This document shows, in pieces, positions 9,392 to 19,719 of a DNA stretch of 64,000 bases. This DNA is from Naegleria gruberi (lineage: Eukaryota): NCBI GenBank assembly GCA_000004985.1, contig GG738915.1; one strand, given 5' to 3'. Under the pieces are notes generated by a model that was given only the letters and a program-made list of their open reading frames with translations, was not told where the DNA came from and ran no database searches. Both the position numbers and the translations under genes were made by a program. How positions within the stretch are numbered: the stretch's first letter is position 1; every line of letters begins with the position of its first letter.

Positions 9392-12300
9392 ATGAATCAA
9401 CATTCACGTTCAACAAGATCATCATCCACTCCAACCCATAGCAATACCACCACAAGACAACCACAACAACAACAGCAACAACAATCAATTTTGCCACAAT
9501 ATAAAGATGTAATAGACAAGGTCAATGAGCCACTCTCACTCATCTACTTTGAATCGTCATCAGACGCAAAGGCTGCTAAAAGAACATTAAATTGGGGACT
9601 TTACTTTTACGAGCATGGTGAATATATTAAATCGAGAGAGGCTCTAATTAAATGTGGAGAAGTTATTTCGAAAATCAATTCTAAACTTTCTACCATTAAT
9701 AATAATAATGGCTCGACAATTTCATTATCATCAACAACATCTCAGGGAAATACAGAATTAGTACAAGGTAAGAGGAATTTTCAATGATTGCAAGTGTCAA
9801 TCAATTATAATGACAATTTAATTTACTTTAATAGTTGGAAAGGATTTACTTTATCGAATTATTCTACTTGTGGAATGTTTGGATAAGATTATGAAAGCAA
9901 AACATCAACAATCCATTGTAAAGAACCAAGCAACCAATTCACCACCTAAAACAACATCAAAACCAAATTCAACACCAACAAACAGTTCTTCTTCTAGTAG
10001 TAGCAGCACTCAGGGAACACTTTCTAGAATATCGAGTGGCATATTTTCAACAATCACGAGTAACTTTACATCTATCAAGAGTAATCTTCAGAAGGAGGGT
10101 TCCTCTTTGAATAATACTAATGGTAATAATGGTAGTAACTCGAAACTGATTCAATTATTCAACAATGTTGGAAATGTACTGAAAAAACCAAAGGAAGAGG
10201 TTGCAATACCCAATCTAGCAGACTCTTATGTACAGGATCAATATGTGTTTGTGGAATTTATAGATGAGAAGAAACCTAATGAGCAACAACAACATGTACA
10301 CAGCAATTTAACTAATTCTCCGAACGATGGAAACATCCCTCCTCTACAACAGGTCAGCTCCTCTAGGGATTCTCTCTCTAAATTACAAAAACGTTTGCAA
10401 ACTGTAATGAAAGGCTCCTCAACAACAACGAATACATCTTTACAACATCAACAACCACAACAGCAACAACAGGTAAATTTGACAGGTAGTGGTTCCTCCT
10501 TGTCAGCTTCCTCTCTTCCAGGTCCAATCAGATTATCCCTTGATGCCTTGCAAACATCAGCGTCTGCAACATCACCAAATGGAGAAGTGAAAAGAGGTCC
10601 ACAAACATCCAGACTCAAATCTTTTATTCAATACATGGAAGAGAGGAGTGGAACATGGAGTCCTGAAACAATTTCTGAGGAAGAGGTTAGGGAGATGGTG
10701 AGAGTACTCAATGAAAATTTAAAGATTTTGAGTACCTCATCAAATTACAAAACAATGGGAATTCTGGCACAAATGTACGATCAAATACGTCCCTATAAGA
10801 AGCAAGTTCTGAAAGAGCTCTCCAGTCAATCAACCAAAGACAAGAGCAAGAAGATTTTAATGTTAAAGAAAATTATTAGTATTGCATTTTCAACCAAAAT
10901 GGTAAATCACTATATTTCAAAAGAGGAAAATTATACAACACTTCAGGAAAATTTCCTTCAATATTTCGAGTTGGATCTCTTTACATTGCATTTGCTGAAT
11001 ATTTATGCAGCAGCTGAAAACTTTGATCACACAAACTTTTGCCTTTCACATCTAGTTGCTAACATTGAGCTATTTTCACAAGCAATTAATGATGTTAATC
11101 AATACCAAGTTGAGAAGAGACAAATTTACAAACAAGTGGATGAATTAATTTTTGGCCACCTCAGAAATAGAATAATCGAGTTGAAGTGGTGTTTTGGAGT
11201 TGACACGTTTGCATACGTGACTAATGATTTCGACAGTGACGCTCTCGAGTCACTAGAATTACTACTCAAGTGTCTTGATGGTTGGCTTAAAATCAAAACA
11301 CAAATGGGTGACTATAGTGTAAATAATAGACCAACAATAGCAGCCATTTTAACAGAATGTTTGGCTCATTTTGTAAGAAAATTGTACATTCTCAACAGAG
11401 AAATGATATCAAATAATTTGAAACAATCTCCTCATTTGAGAGGTTTCTTTTTGGAAGCATCTTTTGACATGAATCTCTCAACATTTGTTGTAGATGAGAC
11501 GAAACAATTGTGTTCTAGGTTTGCTTCCTACTTTGACAAGTATTTTGAAAATACTGCTCAATTTAAAGATATTGTAGCAGTCGAGTTTTCTAAACATTTA
11601 TCAGTGGAAGTTAAGGCATTCTGTCAGGAAGCTCTCAAATATCAACAGGCATGTATGGAACAAGCAAAGAAAAATAAGTTTTTGAGAGTTTACTTTAACG
11701 ACTTGAATTTGGGTGTTCTGAATAAGTTGGTGTCCCACTTTGTGACCAAGTACAGAATTCTTCAAGAACTGTCGCCATGTGTAAAAGATTTTGAAATTGA
11801 ATCTTTCTATGAAATTGTGAGTATGTGCATTACAGTTGCTACTCCAAACAGACTGAAAGATTTTTACTCAAAGGTCATGAGTATGGACACACTAGATAAA
11901 CCAATCGACAAGACAGTCCTTTATACATTCTCCTGTATAGATATGGCTAATGCAAGTCTCAAACCAATTCACATGATTTACAATTTGGACACTCTTATTA
12001 GAAATGGAAATGACAAGTATTTGAGTTTTTTAACTCTGCATTTTGAAGCTATTAGACCAACCATTTCCGAATATTTACAATTAATGCTCAATAGATGTAA
12101 ATATGAATTATCCAAAGTGCAGGGAAATGTCCATGACAGAATACGTTTAGCATGTATTGCCTTCAACAATGTCAATGGACTTTTCATGTATGCCAAAGAT
12201 ATCCTGCAACAATTTAACAGTTCAGTATGTGATCAACTGTTGGAAGACTATGACAGAAAGGTTAATCCAGAGGAAGAATCTGATCAGTTCAACATTAATA

Positions 12301-13226
12301 TACTCCAAGAAAAGTTGATTCAAGTTTATGATTTTCCAAGCGTAAAATCCATCACAAATGAGATAAGAATGGTCACTACAGATATGGCCTTCTTTATTGC
12401 TGACTGGTTGTATAATATGAATGAACAGAGATTTGAGGCAATTTTTAACATTGCATCCAATGGTTCACCTCAAGAAAAATTGTTCATTTTCCTGTCCTCT
12501 TTGGATAGGTTTTTTATGCATTTGTCAGACAATCTCTACTTGGAATTGTTACACGAGGTTCTACGACACTTATATGTAATCTATGTACAAAAATTAGTAA
12601 GAAACAAACTCTTAGGATACAAGCAAAAGAGTCCACTGAACGCCTCTGAATTACTTTCTCCTATTACTGGTATGGATGGTGCAACACCATTCTCTCCAAA
12701 TACATCACCAGTTCCATCACATTTTCCTACCTTTGAATCATCCCAGAAAGTAACTGTTCAATTATGTTTGGATGGACTCAAGGATTTATTCAATGCTTCA
12801 GGAGAAGGTTTGGATTCAAAATTCCTCGATCAACAATCACGAGAATTGGACATTTTAATATTGATCTATAATGACGAAACAGATATTTTGATTAATTTAT
12901 ATGAGAATCTTATTGGAGAAAGAGTTGATGATAAGTATTTAACAAGTCTCTATCAACGATTGGCACCTCAATCACCAAATTTGAACATGCCATCGTCTGT
13001 CTCAATGCCATCATTGGATGATAGTGATTCTATTTCCATAGCAAGTAGCAGCAGCTCTACAGATTCATTCATCCTGCTTTCACTCCAAGAGGCCATCAGT
13101 AGTAAGAGAAAGAATTCTGATTTCCTTTCTCCAGAACTTATTCTCCTCCTACTCAATCAGAGGAAGAAAGATAGAACAGCTAGATCATATGCAAGAAGGA
13201 GACTGAAAGAATTGAAAGAAAAATAA
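9392..13226 (+). CDS. Large hypothetical protein (about 1257 aa), 2 exons; poly-Q and S/T/N-rich N-terminal region, long alpha-helical C-terminal region
   Basis: Exon 1 is 9392..9767, the intron is 9768..9834 (67 nt, donor GTAAGA, acceptor TTAATAG) and exon 2 is 9835..13226. The junction is phase 1. It joins track ORFs 9392..9787 and 9870..13226 in frame; the latter starts at GTG in the track. No enzymatic motif recognised. Confidence 0.7.
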
Positions 13227-13281
13227 ACCATTTCCAAGTCTTCCCAGAACTTTCTGATAATTCAATACTTGGAATGTTGGA

Positions 13282-15529
13282 TTATTTGGTGTTTGGAGTA
13301 TCAACAAAATCCCAACGTGAGCAGTCAACAACCAATGACTGTGCCAATAATAATCTCATTTTACAAATCCTATCGTCTGGATCAATGCTAGCAACTTGTT
13401 CTAGTAGTTGCTCTGCAGAAATAGGATCAAACCTATCTCGGCAAAATAAGTGGGAAATAGCTTTCTCAAACATTTCTTTAGTTGACCGTTTCTTACAATT
13501 TTCAAAAGGTATAATTTCCATAATTTCTACGTAATTTCTCTTACCCACTACACAGATTTTCCCAATCGATCGACAACTCCCTCCCTCTCCCAGAAAAATC
13601 GGTGAACAAGAATCAGTTACACTTTTCGATACTAGAATCTTGGCATCGTAATATTTCGTCAGAGATTCTAATCGAGCAGATAAATTGACTGCATCCCCAA
13701 CTATGGTTGGATCCATTCTCTTTGACTCTCCAATCAAGCCAACTGCACATCGTCCTCTGACAATTCCACATCCTATTGAAATAGGACCAACGATTGGTGA
13801 CACACTCTCATTAAAAACCAGAACACAATTTTGAATTTCAATCGATGCTTTCAGTGCATGGCCTGGCTCTGTAAATAGGGCAATAAATCCATCACCTTAA
13901 TAAAGTTCGTTCATAAATTTCTAAATTCTCGAATGAACATACCCATATATTTATCAATATATCCACAATTTCTCCTCACAATCGGACCAACCAAAGCCAA
14001 ATATCGATTCAATAATTTGAACATTTGATCAGTTGGTAGCCTCTCACTCATTGAAGTATAATTTCGAATATCAACAAACATAATATCCAACTCCTTCTCA
14101 AAGAAATCACCATGATGCAAATCTGTCACCTTCTGCTTATTGATAATGGACATGAATTCTCGTGGCACGAATTTGTAAACCATATCCTCTTGGAGACGCA
14201 ACATTTTCTTCCAAGGTCCTAGAATAGTTTTCGAAAATAGCAACGCCACCAATGCTGCCACAAGAACCACAATTACTATAACAATGGTAAATGCAATTAA
14301 TGAATCGGTAGCATTCAAACCAATTTGATTCGAATAGTCTAATAAGACCAATCTCATTCGATCTTCCACAATCCCTAAAAGAATTCATGCACAGAGTCAT
14401 GTTAAAAAACCATTCTTCAAGTGTATACTTTGTTAAATTTTGATAATTATCCAAGACATAATCTTCCATACTCTGACAGATATTTTGCTGAGTATCATTG
14501 AGAATATTTGTAAGGAATTCTGTGTAAATTTCATTGGATGCCTGAAGAGAGAATAAGTGTCGAACCAAGATTCCCTATAATACATTTAAAGATTTTGGTA
14601 AAAGTTGTTTTTCTTACACCACAATATTCAAAATTACTTACTTTAATGACTGCTTCTTTGAATGAATCAATCGAAGCTTGAGACAAACTTCCATTCATAA
14701 ATCCAAATGTTCCATAAATTCTTCTAATTCCTCGATATTCCCTAGCTGCGGAAAGTAAGTTGAATGAATTGTGAATTATTGCAAAAGTTGGATCCAAACT
14801 TTGACTTGTTACAACTCTAATCATATCATTGATCAAAGAATCCCAATCGTTGATGTATTGGATTGTTGGTAAAAAGGTTTCGTTCGTAACATTCTCCACT
14901 TTCATTCTCCACTCTCCAACACCTTTCGAATAACCAATGACCTTTCCCAAATAATCCTCAAACAAATACCACGTCCTTTTCCACTGTTCATTAATCAAAA
15001 TATCGTTTGGGCTTACCGAAAGTGCGAAGAACCTTTCGATAGCATTGTCAGTTCGATTTCTTGCTTCAGCTAATTCAATTGTATACTGCCTCTTATGAGA
15101 ACCTAGATAAAGAGATGTGATTCCTCTTTCATTTTGCAAACAATCACCAAGTTCTGAGAGATGCATTGTCACTCTTGATAGTTTTTTAATCTCATTCGCA
15201 TGGTTCAAGTTGACCGCAGCAGAATTAATCAGTAAGGCACCAAATACTGCCATAGGAATCAAGCAAAATGCAATAATGAGGGCCAATTTAATGATGAGAG
15301 GTATTTTCTCCAAGATTCTTATTGGAAAGAAACTATTAAACAAGGATTTGTTCATTATGGATTGAGAAGTTATTTTGGATTTGTGTCCTTTCTCAGTGAT
15401 TGGAACTGTGGTTGATGGTTCCTCGAAGGTATCTGGTACAGTACCAGATATACGTTTTGCATGCAATGTTCTTTCTGCATTGTGTTCTACTTGTTGTTGT
15501 TGGGGCGTTTCAATATTCGAAACCTCCAT
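13282..15529 (-). CDS. Receptor-type class III adenylyl/guanylyl cyclase: N-terminal cytosolic tail, TM1, about 260-aa extracellular sensor domain, TM2, cyclase catalytic domain; 4 exons
   Basis: Model in plus-strand coordinates: E1 14642..15529 (ATG at 15527-15529); intron 14575..14641; E2 14472..14574; intron 14375..14471; E3 13943..14374; intron 13896..13942; E4 13282..13895. The E1/E2 and E3/E4 junctions (GTAAGT and GTATGT donors) are solid. The E2/E3 junction (donor GTATGG, acceptor TTTTAG) is needed to get from the sensor-domain frame into the frame that encodes TM2, IAFTIVIVIVVLVAALVALLF. It is phase-consistent but tentative. Cyclase motifs: DIMFVDIRNYTSMSE, CGYIDKYMG, GDGFIALF, GPISIGCGIVRGRCAVGLIG and GDAVNLSARLES. 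Total is about 678 aa. Confidence 0.75.
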
Positions 15530-16440: not shown

Positions 16441-17790
16441 ATGAAAAAGAAAATGAATCCATTTGCCTTGCTTGATTTCCATTTGCCTCATAGATTTTCC
16501 TTACATGGTACGGAATCAAAGTATTTTGATCAGGTGCATGTTACCAAGGCCAATGATGAACATACTACTCTACAGGCAGTTGTTGGTGGTGATTCACCAA
16601 CTTGTTTAAAAGAAGAACAATCTTTATGTAATACTAATAATAATAATGGCGGAAATTGCTCCCCTTGTAATACTATGACCAATATTAGAAATAATACATT
16701 AAATAATCAAAGTGATGGATGTTGTCTCACTGAAGAAGACTCTGAAATATTGAATTGTTACTACAGTTCATCCATGTTTCTTCATGTGATCGCAAGGCAA
16801 GAGCTTGAACGTTTCTTACAAGATTCATCATCCAATTCCTCAAAGGCCAACACTCTGGAAATGATAGAAATGATGACCTTGTATTATTCCATCAAGGCAA
16901 CTTGTGAACTCCAGATGGGACGAATGGACAAATATGAAATCTCGGGAATGAAGGCAATGGAGAATCTTGTCAAACTTTCAAGTACAAACTTGGCGATTGC
17001 TGGAAGCTACCTTAATATGTGCTTGCTTGAATTGTGGAATGATAGATTTGATATTGCAAAATTGTATTTTGCAAAGGTTATGACCTTCAAACCATACTTT
17101 GAGAATGCATCGGAAGGACAGTATGAGTACAAATTATTGAAAGATGACCTCAATATCTCAGTCAAGTTATTGGAGTATACTCTATTCAATGCTGATGTTA
17201 ACAATCTTCATCATTTATTGTTTGAAAGGTTTCTTGTAAATTTACCAACTCTCTTTTCGTATTATAGAACTGGGCAAGCGCTCATTAATGAATGGAACCA
17301 CATTCTAAAGAATCCTCACCTTATCAATTCATCAAATTGTATGCAAGTTCATATGCTGATATTGACACTCTTGAGGGATTGTAAAAAGTATGAAGAAGAT
17401 ACAAAGGGACGATCAGAAAATCTCACTTTACTGTACGACTTTTTGGAAAGTGGGATAACATTGGCTCTGTTATCCAAATGCTCTGAAAAAACGCCCATGA
17501 TTGAGTATACCATTGAATCAAGTGCAAAGAGAATTGTCAAGTCAATTAAGAATCCAAATTTTGAATCTGCTCCATTTGAAGTGATCATTTATCTTTCATT
17601 TGCTGCAGAGCATCACTTGAAAAGGATTCTACAAGGTGTTTTATCAAGAGACTCGATGAATTATGTTGAAATGCTTCGAGATACACTCAATGCATACAAA
17701 TCTCTTCAATCCAGATTTAAAATAGCCAATTTTTACTATTATGGGGGAGTATTCCAACAAGTGGATTTATACTTCTGTAATAAAGCGTAA
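16441..17790 (+). CDS. Paralog A of a tandem pair: putative transcription-regulator-like protein that lacks the canonical Zn2Cys6 cluster
   Basis: 449-aa ORF with ATG at 16441; MNPF begins at 16453. It shares with the downstream gene the N-terminal MNPFxLLDFHL, the blocks LYYSIKATCExQMG, YLNMC, LPTLFSY, LKNPHLI[NS]S[ST]NC and NP[KN]FES[AM]PFE, and the C-terminal YYGG[IV]F. It is Cys-containing but has no CxxCx6Cx5-9CxxCx6-8C pattern. Confidence 0.75.
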   Translation: MKKKMNPFALLDFHLPHRFSLHGTESKYFDQVHVTKANDEHTTLQAVVGGDSPTCLKEEQSLCNTNNNNGGNCSPCNTMTNIRNNTLNNQSDGCCLTEEDSEILNCYYSSSMFLHVIARQELERFLQDSSSNSSKANTLEMIEMMTLYYSIKATCELQMGRMDKYEISGMKAMENLVKLSSTNLAIAGSYLNMCLLELWNDRFDIAKLYFAKVMTFKPYFENASEGQYEYKLLKDDLNISVKLLEYTLFNADVNNLHHLLFERFLVNLPTLFSYYRTGQALINEWNHILKNPHLINSSNCMQVHMLILTLLRDCKKYEEDTKGRSENLTLLYDFLESGITLALLSKCSEKTPMIEYTIESSAKRIVKSIKNPNFESAPFEVIIYLSFAAEHHLKRILQGVLSRDSMNYVEMLRDTLNAYKSLQSRFKIANFYYYGGVFQQVDLYFCNKA

Positions 17791-18006: not shown

Positions 18007-19719
18007 ATGGTTTGTTTACCTTCCTTATTAAATCAACCATTTGAAAAAAAATCAATGAATCCCTTCCTAGTGCTCGATTTCCACTTATCGGATGAGAATT
18101 TGTTCTTCAATCCTAACAATTTTCAGCCGGTAACCTTTGCAAATAACTGTACTTTTATTCCACAATTACAACCTCTTCAGACTCAGCCTCAATATATTAC
18201 TTCAACAACAGCATCAATAACTAATCACAATACTTCTATTAATCAACATCCTAATAATATCCAACAACAACAACTCCATCACAACAAGAATGGTTTCAAC
18301 CAACAACAAATACCTTCCTCATTCCAGAACGACTCTGTCAGTAGTTCCACTTCCTGCGATCCGGCCACTACACATGGAGGAAGCCGAAGCAACCACAACT
18401 CTGTTACAACAAATCAAACTGCTCTTGAGAATGTAGCAGAAAATGGCACATCTCAACCTTCAGAAGAGAACGCTAACTGTGATAATGCAGATGGAACCAT
18501 TGCTCCAATATCTTGTGATGCATGTCGTTCTAACCATCGTCGATGTGATCGTATCAGACCTTCATGTCAAGCTTGTAAAATAAGAGGAATCCCATGTAAC
18601 TATAGTATGAACTTTAAGAGAAGAGCCAAGTTTATTAACAATAACAGATTGAAGGATGAAGATGTTGCAATTTTGGATGTTTATTACACAGAGTCTGGAT
18701 ATCACATGGTTTCAAGGACAGAGTTGGAACAATTCTTGTTAGAATCTTATAAGTGTAACGGCTCTTACACAACACAAGATATGAAAGAGATGATAGCCCT
18801 GTATTATTCAATTAAAGCAACCTGTGAGTGTCAAATGGGTCAAATTGACAAGGCAGAGTTATCCGCAAAGCAGGCAAAGGAGTATCTTTCCAAAGTATTT
18901 GATTGCTATACCAGTATGAAGGTTGCTGGAACCTATCTCAACATGTGCTTTTATGAACTGTGGTTTGAGAGGTTACACACAGCCAAGTTTTACTTTCAAA
19001 CTCTACTCTTCTTTAAAGAAGCTCTTGAGAACTCAAAGGAAGAAACAAAGAATTCCATTAGAGAGCATCTAATAATTACAATCACCTACTTGGAGGAGAC
19101 CATATTTAACATTCAGGATAAGAAGAACCTTCATGAGAGAACCTTCGACAGGTTTTTGCTGACACTCCCAACACTCTTCTCCTATTTGAAAACTTCAGAT
19201 TGTATGTTTGGTAGTGACTGGGATTATTATTTGAAGAATCCACACCTAATTGACTCTACGAATTGTGTACAGGTTAATACACTCCTTCAAAATCTATTGA
19301 GAGAATGTAAGAGGTATGAACAGAATAATTTTGGAGGAAATCCAGTTCTGGATTTGTACTATGATGTCATGGAGAGTGGTTGTACATTGGCACTGTTGTC
19401 AAAAACTAAGGAAATGAATTCAATGATGGATTATGTCTTGGAGAGAAGTGCTACTACTATTGTAAATTCGATTAATAACCCTAAATTTGAATCAATGCCT
19501 TTTGAGATTCTTCTCCACATTTCATTTGCTGCAGAGTATCATTTGAAAAAGGTGAGAGAGGGCATATTTATGGGTAGTATGAATAATTGTGATTATATTG
19601 AAATGTTGAGAACTGAATTAAGAGCCTACCAAACCCTACAATCAAGATACAAGATTGCCAAGACTTACTTTTATGGTGGAATATTCAAGAAATTGGATGA
19701 CTATTTCAATAATCAATAA
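18007..19719 (+). CDS. Paralog B: fungal-type Zn(II)2Cys6 binuclear-cluster (GAL4-like) putative transcription factor
   Basis: 570-aa ORF. The Zn2Cys6 motif is CDACRSNHRRCDRIRPSCQACKIRGIPC (about nt 18517-18600), followed by a basic linker. The region after that is homologous to paralog A. The N-terminal part is Q/N-rich. Confidence 0.75.
   Translation: MVCLPSLLNQPFEKKSMNPFLVLDFHLSDENLFFNPNNFQPVTFANNCTFIPQLQPLQTQPQYITSTTASITNHNTSINQHPNNIQQQQLHHNKNGFNQQQIPSSFQNDSVSSSTSCDPATTHGGSRSNHNSVTTNQTALENVAENGTSQPSEENANCDNADGTIAPISCDACRSNHRRCDRIRPSCQACKIRGIPCNYSMNFKRRAKFINNNRLKDEDVAILDVYYTESGYHMVSRTELEQFLLESYKCNGSYTTQDMKEMIALYYSIKATCECQMGQIDKAELSAKQAKEYLSKVFDCYTSMKVAGTYLNMCFYELWFERLHTAKFYFQTLLFFKEALENSKEETKNSIREHLIITITYLEETIFNIQDKKNLHERTFDRFLLTLPTLFSYLKTSDCMFGSDWDYYLKNPHLIDSTNCVQVNTLLQNLLRECKRYEQNNFGGNPVLDLYYDVMESGCTLALLSKTKEMNSMMDYVLERSATTIVNSINNPKFESMPFEILLHISFAAEYHLKKVREGIFMGSMNNCDYIEMLRTELRAYQTLQSRYKIAKTYFYGGIFKKLDDYFNNQ

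Follow-up and report, generated by a model that had tools for sequence, protein, structure and literature searches.

How does a gene whose sensor and catalytic halves lie in different reading frames come to encode a single protein? The question is raised by a locus on the minus strand of Naegleria gruberi contig GG738915.1 (assembly GCA_000004985.1), of which a stretch of 64,000 nucleotides (nt; hereafter the window, to which all coordinates refer) was analysed. The window is AT-rich (about 35% GC) and holds many long open reading frames (ORFs), and a sequence-only reading had proposed that four exons on this strand, joined across three short introns, encode a receptor-type nucleotidyl cyclase with a transmembrane (TM) segment on either side of a large ectodomain; assembled, these exons give a protein of 678 residues. 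Our analysis bears out the gene, the coding region of which runs from an ATG at 15529 to a stop codon at 13282, together with two of the introns; the third, a 97-nt interval at 14375..14471, is coding sequence for the end of a conserved sensor domain. The locus very probably encodes a receptor adenylyl cyclase made as one chain of about 710 amino acids (aa), in a gene with two introns and a frame broken by one extra T. We hold with high confidence the reading as a whole, in which an N-terminal tail and TM1 are followed by a NIT domain of two four-helix bundles, TM2, a helical linker of about 48 residues, a cyclase domain of class IIIb and, at the C-terminus, a conserved helical extension.

Gene structure and the extra base

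The ATG at 15529 starts a 332-codon ORF, and ORFs in other frames carry on to the stop codon at 13282. The parts of the corrected gene, in the order of transcription, are as follows.

14642..15529, minus strand: exon 1 (aa 1-296), an ORF from the ATG, with the predicted cytosolic N-terminal tail, TM1 and the first two thirds of the NIT domain
14575..14641, minus strand: first intron, 67 nt, phase 0, GTAAGT...TATAG; its retention leads to a stop codon, and the public gene model uses it
14371..14574, minus strand: exon 2, first frame (aa 297-364), which contains the proposed 97-nt intron as coding sequence
14370..14371, minus strand: site of the extra base, one of the two T's in GATTGTG; a close relative is one base shorter and reads through (DSFRNVEDRM)
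13943..14369, minus strand: exon 2, second frame (aa 365-507; ORF 13911..14369), with the end of the NIT helix, TM2, the linker and the first half of the cyclase domain
13896..13942, minus strand: second intron (the third of the sequence-only reading), 47 nt, phase 1, GTATGT...TTAAG, splitting Gly507 (KYMG/DG)
13282..13895, minus strand: last exon (aa 507-710 and the stop codon; ORF), with the second half of the cyclase domain and the conserved helical C-terminal extension

The top match to the locus in a large protein collection is a 441-aa 'predicted protein [Naegleria gruberi]' (P0001), identical letter by letter to the product obtained by removing the first intron and then reading to the stop codon at 14137. 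It is a NIT-only fragment without TM2 and the cyclase, and its last 79 residues are out of frame. When the cyclase half was used as the query, no N. gruberi protein in a collection of 5.8 billion proteins covered it.

The most informative comparison is with a 3.4-kb metagenome contig from a close Naegleria relative (L001), the protein of which is 87% identical to the corrected product. With just the counterparts of the two introns removed, this contig encodes an uninterrupted protein of 707 aa. Conservation between the two sequences begins at the ATG, upstream of which the window has an in-frame stop codon. The introns measure 80 and 37 nt in the relative (the latter a 10-nt difference) and align poorly, and the exons that flank them are gap-free; both introns are supported because these length differences are not multiples of three. 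Furthermore, the Pfam match to NIT is unbroken across the junction of the first intron, the ORFs of two further relatives (P0018 and P0019) end exactly after KYMG at the site of the second, and the GDG metal-binding motif (D508) is formed only once the 47-nt intron has been removed. By this comparison, the predicted corrected protein is 710 aa long and requires two short introns, of 67 and 47 nt, instead of three; its length is bracketed by those of the named heterolobosean homologues (691-753 aa).

With these two introns spliced out, the assembled sequence does not give one uninterrupted frame: it is broken at 14370/14371. The frame switch before TM2 that the sequence-only reading had noticed is real, but its cause is a 1-nt extra base rather than an intron. 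At the switch point the window reads GGGATTGTGG where the relative reads GGAA-TGTGG and, in a wider alignment, AGGGATTGTGG against AGGAA-TGTGG. When the N. lovaniensis ORF was used as a tblastn query, homology in the first frame extended to 14368 and that in the second began at 14369, with the change of frame between 14371 and 14369; the family consensus R-D/E/N-V-E spans the site, where dropping one T restores R-D-V-E. The switch is thus explained most simply, from these alignments, by one surplus T at 14371/14370. The public model stops at 441 aa without the cyclase because this T breaks the frame before TM2.

The extra T may have arisen in assembly or base calling, may belong to one allele, or may be an inactivating mutation of very recent date. 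Downstream of it, 346 codons continue without a stop, 325 of the 346 residues are identical to those of the relative, and the ratio of non-synonymous to synonymous substitution rates (dN/dS) is 0.12 at a synonymous divergence (dS) of 0.24. For the second frame of exon 2 taken separately, 134 of 142 residues are identical and dN/dS is 0.17; in the last exon it is 0.11, and upstream of the shift it is 0.49. Because the downstream portion has a dN/dS of 0.12 and no stop codon, purifying selection on the cyclase half was strong until very recently. It is nevertheless a distinct possibility, somewhat short of an even chance, that the extra base is real and the locus has only very recently become a pseudogene, or else is a null allele of a clonal, polyploid laboratory strain, leaving a fragment of at most 441 aa with TM1 and the NIT domain and without cyclase activity. 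The frameshift is, after all, present in the reference, the public model follows it, and the site lies outside any long homopolymer; moreover, the gene family is multi-copy in Heterolobosea, and a second member, N. lovaniensis C9374_011352, is likewise frame-broken or mis-modelled within the NIT domain. The long open and conserved stretch beyond the shift, with its splice sites and all catalytic residues intact, argues the other way: any inactivation would be very young relative to the split from the relative, and a single-base error in a draft Sanger assembly fits the data equally well.

Sensor domain, membrane topology and cyclase

The corrected protein contains two hydrophobic segments and two recognizable domains, located as follows.

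15227..15298, minus strand: TM1 (aa 78-101, LIIKLALIIAFCLIPMAVFGALLI); Kyte-Doolittle hydropathy in a 19-residue window up to 2.77, helical in the AlphaFold2 model
14352..15145, minus strand: NIT domain (aa 129-370 of the corrected protein), spanning the first intron and the frameshift; PF08376, 75.5 bits, E 1.1e-20
14235..14300, minus strand: TM2 (aa 388-409, LIAFTIVIVIVVLVAALVALLF); hydropathy up to 3.38
13537..14090, minus strand: class III cyclase domain (aa 458-626), spanning the second intron; PF00211

The ectodomain, which had been described as matching no nameable family, is a NIT domain. On the frameshift-corrected protein, the PF08376 score compares with a cut-off of 24.9 bits and the match covers profile positions 4-235 of 239; at E values up to 0.1, Pfam returns only NIT, Guanylate_cyc and an insignificant match to Ter, and none to CHASE, Cache, PBP or HAMP. 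A profile built from three Naegleria ectodomains has a single sequence match in the PDB, the Klebsiella oxytoca protein NasR (4AKK; E 7.8e-5). An AlphaFold2 model of TM1-NIT-TM2, built on an alignment of NIT relatives, is all-helical (mean predicted local distance difference test score 91.8, predicted template modelling score 0.84), and a Foldseek search of the PDB again returned 4AKK as the only significant match (E 9e-9, probability 1.00, TM-score 0.70; next E 0.04). The modelled domain is made up of a pair of four-helix bundles, as in NasR. Of the families to which the sequence-only reading had likened the protein, CHASE-domain cyclases therefore find no counterpart in the Pfam matches of the ectodomain, whereas its passing mention of NIT-domain cyclases named the correct family; the comparison with CHASE, NIT and PBP folds that it had suggested points, by profile and by Foldseek, to NIT.

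An exhaustive single-sequence search of 1.84 billion representatives yielded 45 relatives of the domain. NIT was present in all 40 that were scanned, together with MCP domains in 22, cyclases in 5, histidine kinases in 4, RGS domains in 2 and ANTAR in 1; the link to RGS (regulator of G-protein signalling) struck us as an unusual pairing. R135 (in LQNERG) and R270 (in EYRGIRR) align with R50 and R176 of NasR (chain positions 77 and 203). They lie within two motifs, Q-x-E-R and K-E-x-x-G-x-x-R, which are invariant and nearly invariant, respectively, across 40-42 NIT proteins and which align with R50 and with E175/R176 of NasR. In NasR, R50 and R176 lie at the bundle interface and form the proposed nitrate pocket (PMC7496416, PMC7400543). 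On the strength of these aligned residues, nitrate or nitrite is a plausible ligand of the Naegleria domain, at odds that we would set at or slightly under even.

Strong hydrophobicity is confined to two segments of the protein, aa 78-101 and 388-409, a layout shared by its homologues, and the TM1 and TM2 peptides of the sequence-only reading lie within them. Hydropathy and Pfam together thus uphold the proposed succession of N-terminal tail, TM1, large ectodomain, TM2 and class III cyclase. The N-glycosylation sites claimed for the ectodomain are also found: the loop between the two segments, about 286 aa long, contains eight N-x-S/T sequons. We infer that the NIT domain faces outward, because the cyclase needs cytosolic ATP, the N- and C-terminal-side flanks of the TM segments are rich in Lys and Arg, and the loop carries sequons. 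In the AlphaFold2 model, the last NIT helix continues without a break through TM2, as a single helix of model residues 279-353 (protein residues 348-422). Two of the sequons, NLT (aa 342-344) and NMT (aa 354-356), at 14466-14371 in the window, lie inside the most conserved block of the ectodomain and are kept in most family members, consistent with an extracellular glycosylated loop.

C-terminal to TM2 lies the cyclase domain that the class III assignment had anticipated: it scores 45.5 bits for PF00211 (cut-off 21.9), over positions 9-174 of the 183 in the profile. Both metal-binding aspartates, the absence of which would have counted against a cyclase, are present: D464 (in FVDIRN) and D508 (in GDG) align with the corresponding residues of Pseudomonas aeruginosa CyaB and Beggiatoa bPAC. 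The substrate positions are occupied by K504 (DKYMGD, compared with DKFVGD in CyaB) and T570 (RMDPTIVG, compared with RMDYTIIG in CyaB and KMDHTLLG in bPAC), and the transition-state residues N577 and R581 stand in AVNLSARLES at the VNxAxR position. All six residues (D464, K504, D508, T570, N577 and R581) are invariant in four Naegleria sequences. Lys together with Thr is the pattern of adenylyl cyclase subclass IIIb, Lys with Asp that of subclass IIIa, and guanylyl cyclases have Glu and Cys; stimulation by bicarbonate is typical of class IIIb. The best matches in the PDB are class IIIb adenylyl cyclases, namely CyaB (3R5G, E 1.9e-18), bPAC (5MBH), OaPAC, 2W01 and CyaC (1WC0), at E values between 2e-18 and 5e-14; rhodopsin guanylyl cyclases match far more weakly (E 2e-7). 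Homology to bPAC begins at residue 415 (query 415-457) and so takes in its pre-catalytic helix, and outside Heterolobosea the cyclase half has its closest relatives in bacteria, among them response-regulator cyclases of Microcoleus (33-38% identity). The choice between adenylyl and guanylyl cyclase, which the sequence-only reading had left open, is answered by this alignment of the purine-specifying residues: the enzyme is predicted to be an adenylyl cyclase of the class IIIb pattern, because Lys504 and Thr570 align with the substrate residues of class IIIb adenylyl cyclases. Its product is likely to be cyclic AMP (cAMP).

It is unlikely that the protein is instead a guanylyl cyclase, or that its NIT-like domain senses something besides nitrate or nitrite. 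Metazoan receptors of the same TM-NIT-TM layout do have guanylyl cyclase domains (PMC7400543), UniProt calls the Naegleria homologues 'Guanylate cyclase domain-containing', and a NIT ligand has been demonstrated only for bacterial proteins of the NasR type. The UniProt label, however, is merely the Pfam domain name, the Lys/Thr pair is that of CyaB, bPAC and CyaC, with which the domain aligns far better than with rhodopsin guanylyl cyclases, and the Arg pair of the proposed nitrate pocket is kept.

The cyclase domain is followed by an extension of about 85 residues (aa 627-710, window 13282-13536) that is conserved across the heterolobosean family with the pattern ..TKEMFEKA..HL....F....A...L.Q...IDP.D..C..R......L......W and has no Pfam match.

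The 97-nt interval before TM2

A genuine spliceosomal intron at 14471..14375, which would give the 678-aa protein with a shorter sensor and leave the genome sequence correct, is very improbable. Its ends are canonical (GTATGG...TTTTAG), its size is within the range of the other two introns, and splicing it restores the frame into TM2 and the cyclase. The last of these counts for little: when all pairs of at least 20 nt in the interval were enumerated, 13 GT..AG pairs restored an open frame, so that finding one such pair carries little weight, and each of the 13 deletes residues of the conserved NIT end, the juxtamembrane stretch or TM2. What the proposed splice removes is, moreover, the best-conserved block of the ectodomain, SMEDYVLDNYQNLTKYTLEEWFFNMTLCMNSF, which comprises 32-33 conserved residues of the last NIT helices (ME.Y..NY.NLT.Y...WF.NMT) and aligns with the WF..T......VE helix of NasR. 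On the spliced model, the PF08376 match scores 59.5 bits and covers profile positions 4-188; keeping 14375..14471 and deleting one base near 14370-14375 raises the score to 75.5 bits and extends the match from 188 to 235 of 239, a gain of positions 189-235.

The comparison with relatives points the same way. Unlike the two true introns, the interval is colinear with the L001 contig, with no indel and a dN/dS of 0.36, and the GT of the proposed donor is GA there. In that contig, in N. lovaniensis, N. fowleri, N. gruberi NAEGRDRAFT_75632 and Willaertia magna, and in ENA and uncultured relatives, the interval and TM2 form one ORF, so that the sequence is coding in all relatives compared. Finally, in the AlphaFold2 model, its deletion would remove the start of the helix that runs on into TM2. 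The junction that the sequence-only reading had itself flagged as its weakest part therefore does not hold.

Even less credible is a rescue of a genuine extra T, by which the cyclase would still be made through a cryptic 97-nt intron, with a truncated NIT domain, or through translational +1 recoding near UUU-AGG-GAU-U; nothing in the analysis positively supports either route. The R-D-V-E reading places the shift after GAU, a context not known to be slippery; AGG, at 4.7 per 1000 codons, is no more than moderately rare, and we know of no description of nuclear +1 recoding in Heterolobosea. A Ty1-like +1 site (UUU-AGG-G) was considered and rejected, since the family consensus R-D/E-V-E is obtained only when AGG and GAT are both decoded in the first frame.

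Relatives, proposed mechanism and meaning

The order of parts seen in the corrected protein recurs in N. lovaniensis C9374_011351 (714 aa), N. fowleri FDP41_005831 (691 aa), N. gruberi NAEGRDRAFT_75632 (735 aa) and Willaertia magna ABK040_006932 (694 aa). These heterolobosean NIT-cyclases are 44-59% identical to it, with identical catalytic residues and the same junction motifs (ME.Y..NY.NLT.Y...WFNNMT....R.VE); unlike them, the present copy has a 1-nt frameshift in the assembly and is annotated as a 441-aa NIT-only protein. The intron positions of the N. lovaniensis gene differ from those found here. Beyond the cyclase itself, the surroundings of the gene are not syntenic with those in N. lovaniensis, and strict orthology to C9374_011351 is not claimed for that reason. 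The literature searched contained no experimental study of the named heterolobosean proteins; NIT does figure as one of the domain compositions given for a nucleotidyl cyclase III tree in the Euglena genome paper, a tree in which N. gruberi is represented (PMC6366073).

Outside Heterolobosea, the closest parallel in layout is offered by the NIT receptor guanylyl cyclases of placozoans and many other invertebrates, in which a NIT domain between two TM segments is followed by PF00211 and the Arg pair is conserved as here (Moroz et al. 2020, PMC7400543); the sensing of nitrate or nitrite by these proteins is likewise a proposal. They belong, however, to the ANP-receptor-type guanylyl cyclase clade, whereas the Naegleria domain is of the Lys/Thr class IIIb adenylyl cyclase type. 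NasR shares with the Naegleria NIT domain R50, E175/R176 and the WF..T......VE helix, but it is a cytosolic protein in which NIT is joined to an ANTAR RNA-binding domain, whereas in Naegleria the domain lies between two TM segments and is coupled to a cyclase. The class IIIb structures of P. aeruginosa CyaB, Beggiatoa bPAC, Oscillatoria OaPAC and Spirulina CyaC have the same set of catalytic residues, including Thr rather than Asp at the second substrate position; their input modules are MASE2, BLUF or others, in place of the putatively extracellular NIT domain of Naegleria. Bacterial NIT-HAMP-MCP chemoreceptors and NIT histidine kinases, in which a periplasmic NIT domain is likewise flanked by two TM segments, make up most of the 40 nearest NIT homologues (22 MCP and 4 histidine kinases). 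Their output is chemotaxis or a phosphorelay, usually by way of HAMP, whereas the Naegleria protein, without HAMP by Pfam, passes straight to the cyclase.

Two public models of relatives also depart from the family pattern. N. lovaniensis C9374_011352 (L002 8508-10754) is the tandem neighbour of C9374_011351, and its annotated 570-nt 'intron' (L002 8937-9506) contains coding sequence homologous to NIT, split between frame 3 (P0002 aa 27-175) and frame 2 (P0002 aa 174-274). The gene is therefore frameshifted or mis-modelled, and its published protein (P0004, 558 aa) is without most of the NIT domain. The N. fowleri FDP41_005831 protein (P0087) leaves the family alignment at RMDATIISD/SKSLTPPLWS and loses the VNLSARLES motif; the point of departure is the intron site of N. 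lovaniensis (ISD/SVN), and the N. fowleri model probably contains a missed or mis-placed intron.

In the window, the cyclase gene converges with a 1118-codon ORF on the plus strand (9870-13226), with about 55 nt between the two stop codons (13227-13281). This ORF and another at 16441-17790 showed no Pfam family and no functional link to the cyclase; an ORF at 18007-19719 encodes a Zn(2)-Cys(6) cluster domain, and a tRNA scan of the window found none.

Several observations weigh against a functional receptor cyclase that senses nitrate or nitrite at this locus. The assembled frame is broken, and conventional splicing of this copy gives no mRNA from which the cyclase half could be translated. 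No independent copy of the shift site came to light: two exact-pattern scans of metagenome contigs of the Joint Genome Institute (JGI) gave 0 matches, and look-ups of exact products, made for the 441-aa protein and for three window ORFs that lie downstream of the shift, returned no record. The membrane orientation is read from hydropathy, the glycosylation sequons and the requirement that the cyclase have access to cytosolic ATP. Evolution is faster in the sensor half (dN/dS about 0.44-0.57) than in the rest of the protein, and the ectodomain is only 15-16% identical to NasR; the ligand specificity may, for these two reasons, differ from that of NasR. To our knowledge, no eukaryotic NIT domain has a demonstrated ligand.

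Taking the locus as a receptor adenylyl cyclase nonetheless, we propose the following mechanism. The receptor would act as a homodimer with two symmetric active sites at the dimer interface, as suggested by the presence of all six catalytic residues in one chain. A small anion, most likely nitrate or nitrite, would bind between the NIT bundles at Arg135 and Arg270 and displace the last NIT helix, which is continuous with TM2 in the model. This movement would be relayed by the linker, homologous to the pre-catalytic helix of bPAC, and re-align the two catalytic domains, changing the synthesis of cAMP from ATP in one direction or the other.

Collectively, our analysis identifies the locus as an ordinary member of a known receptor family, newly recognized behind a wrong annotation. 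It corrects the public gene model from a 441-aa fragment to 710 aa, adding one more heterolobosean NIT receptor cyclase, and it illustrates that a GT..AG pair that repairs a frame is weak evidence for an intron. The question of the ligand concerns the whole NIT-cyclase family rather than this locus, and the corrected 710-aa model provides a concrete construct for asking whether eukaryotic NIT receptors sense nitrate. If the proposal is true, a soil amoeba that feeds on bacteria would convert extracellular nitrate or nitrite directly into a cAMP signal, by a simple sensory pathway open to experimental test.

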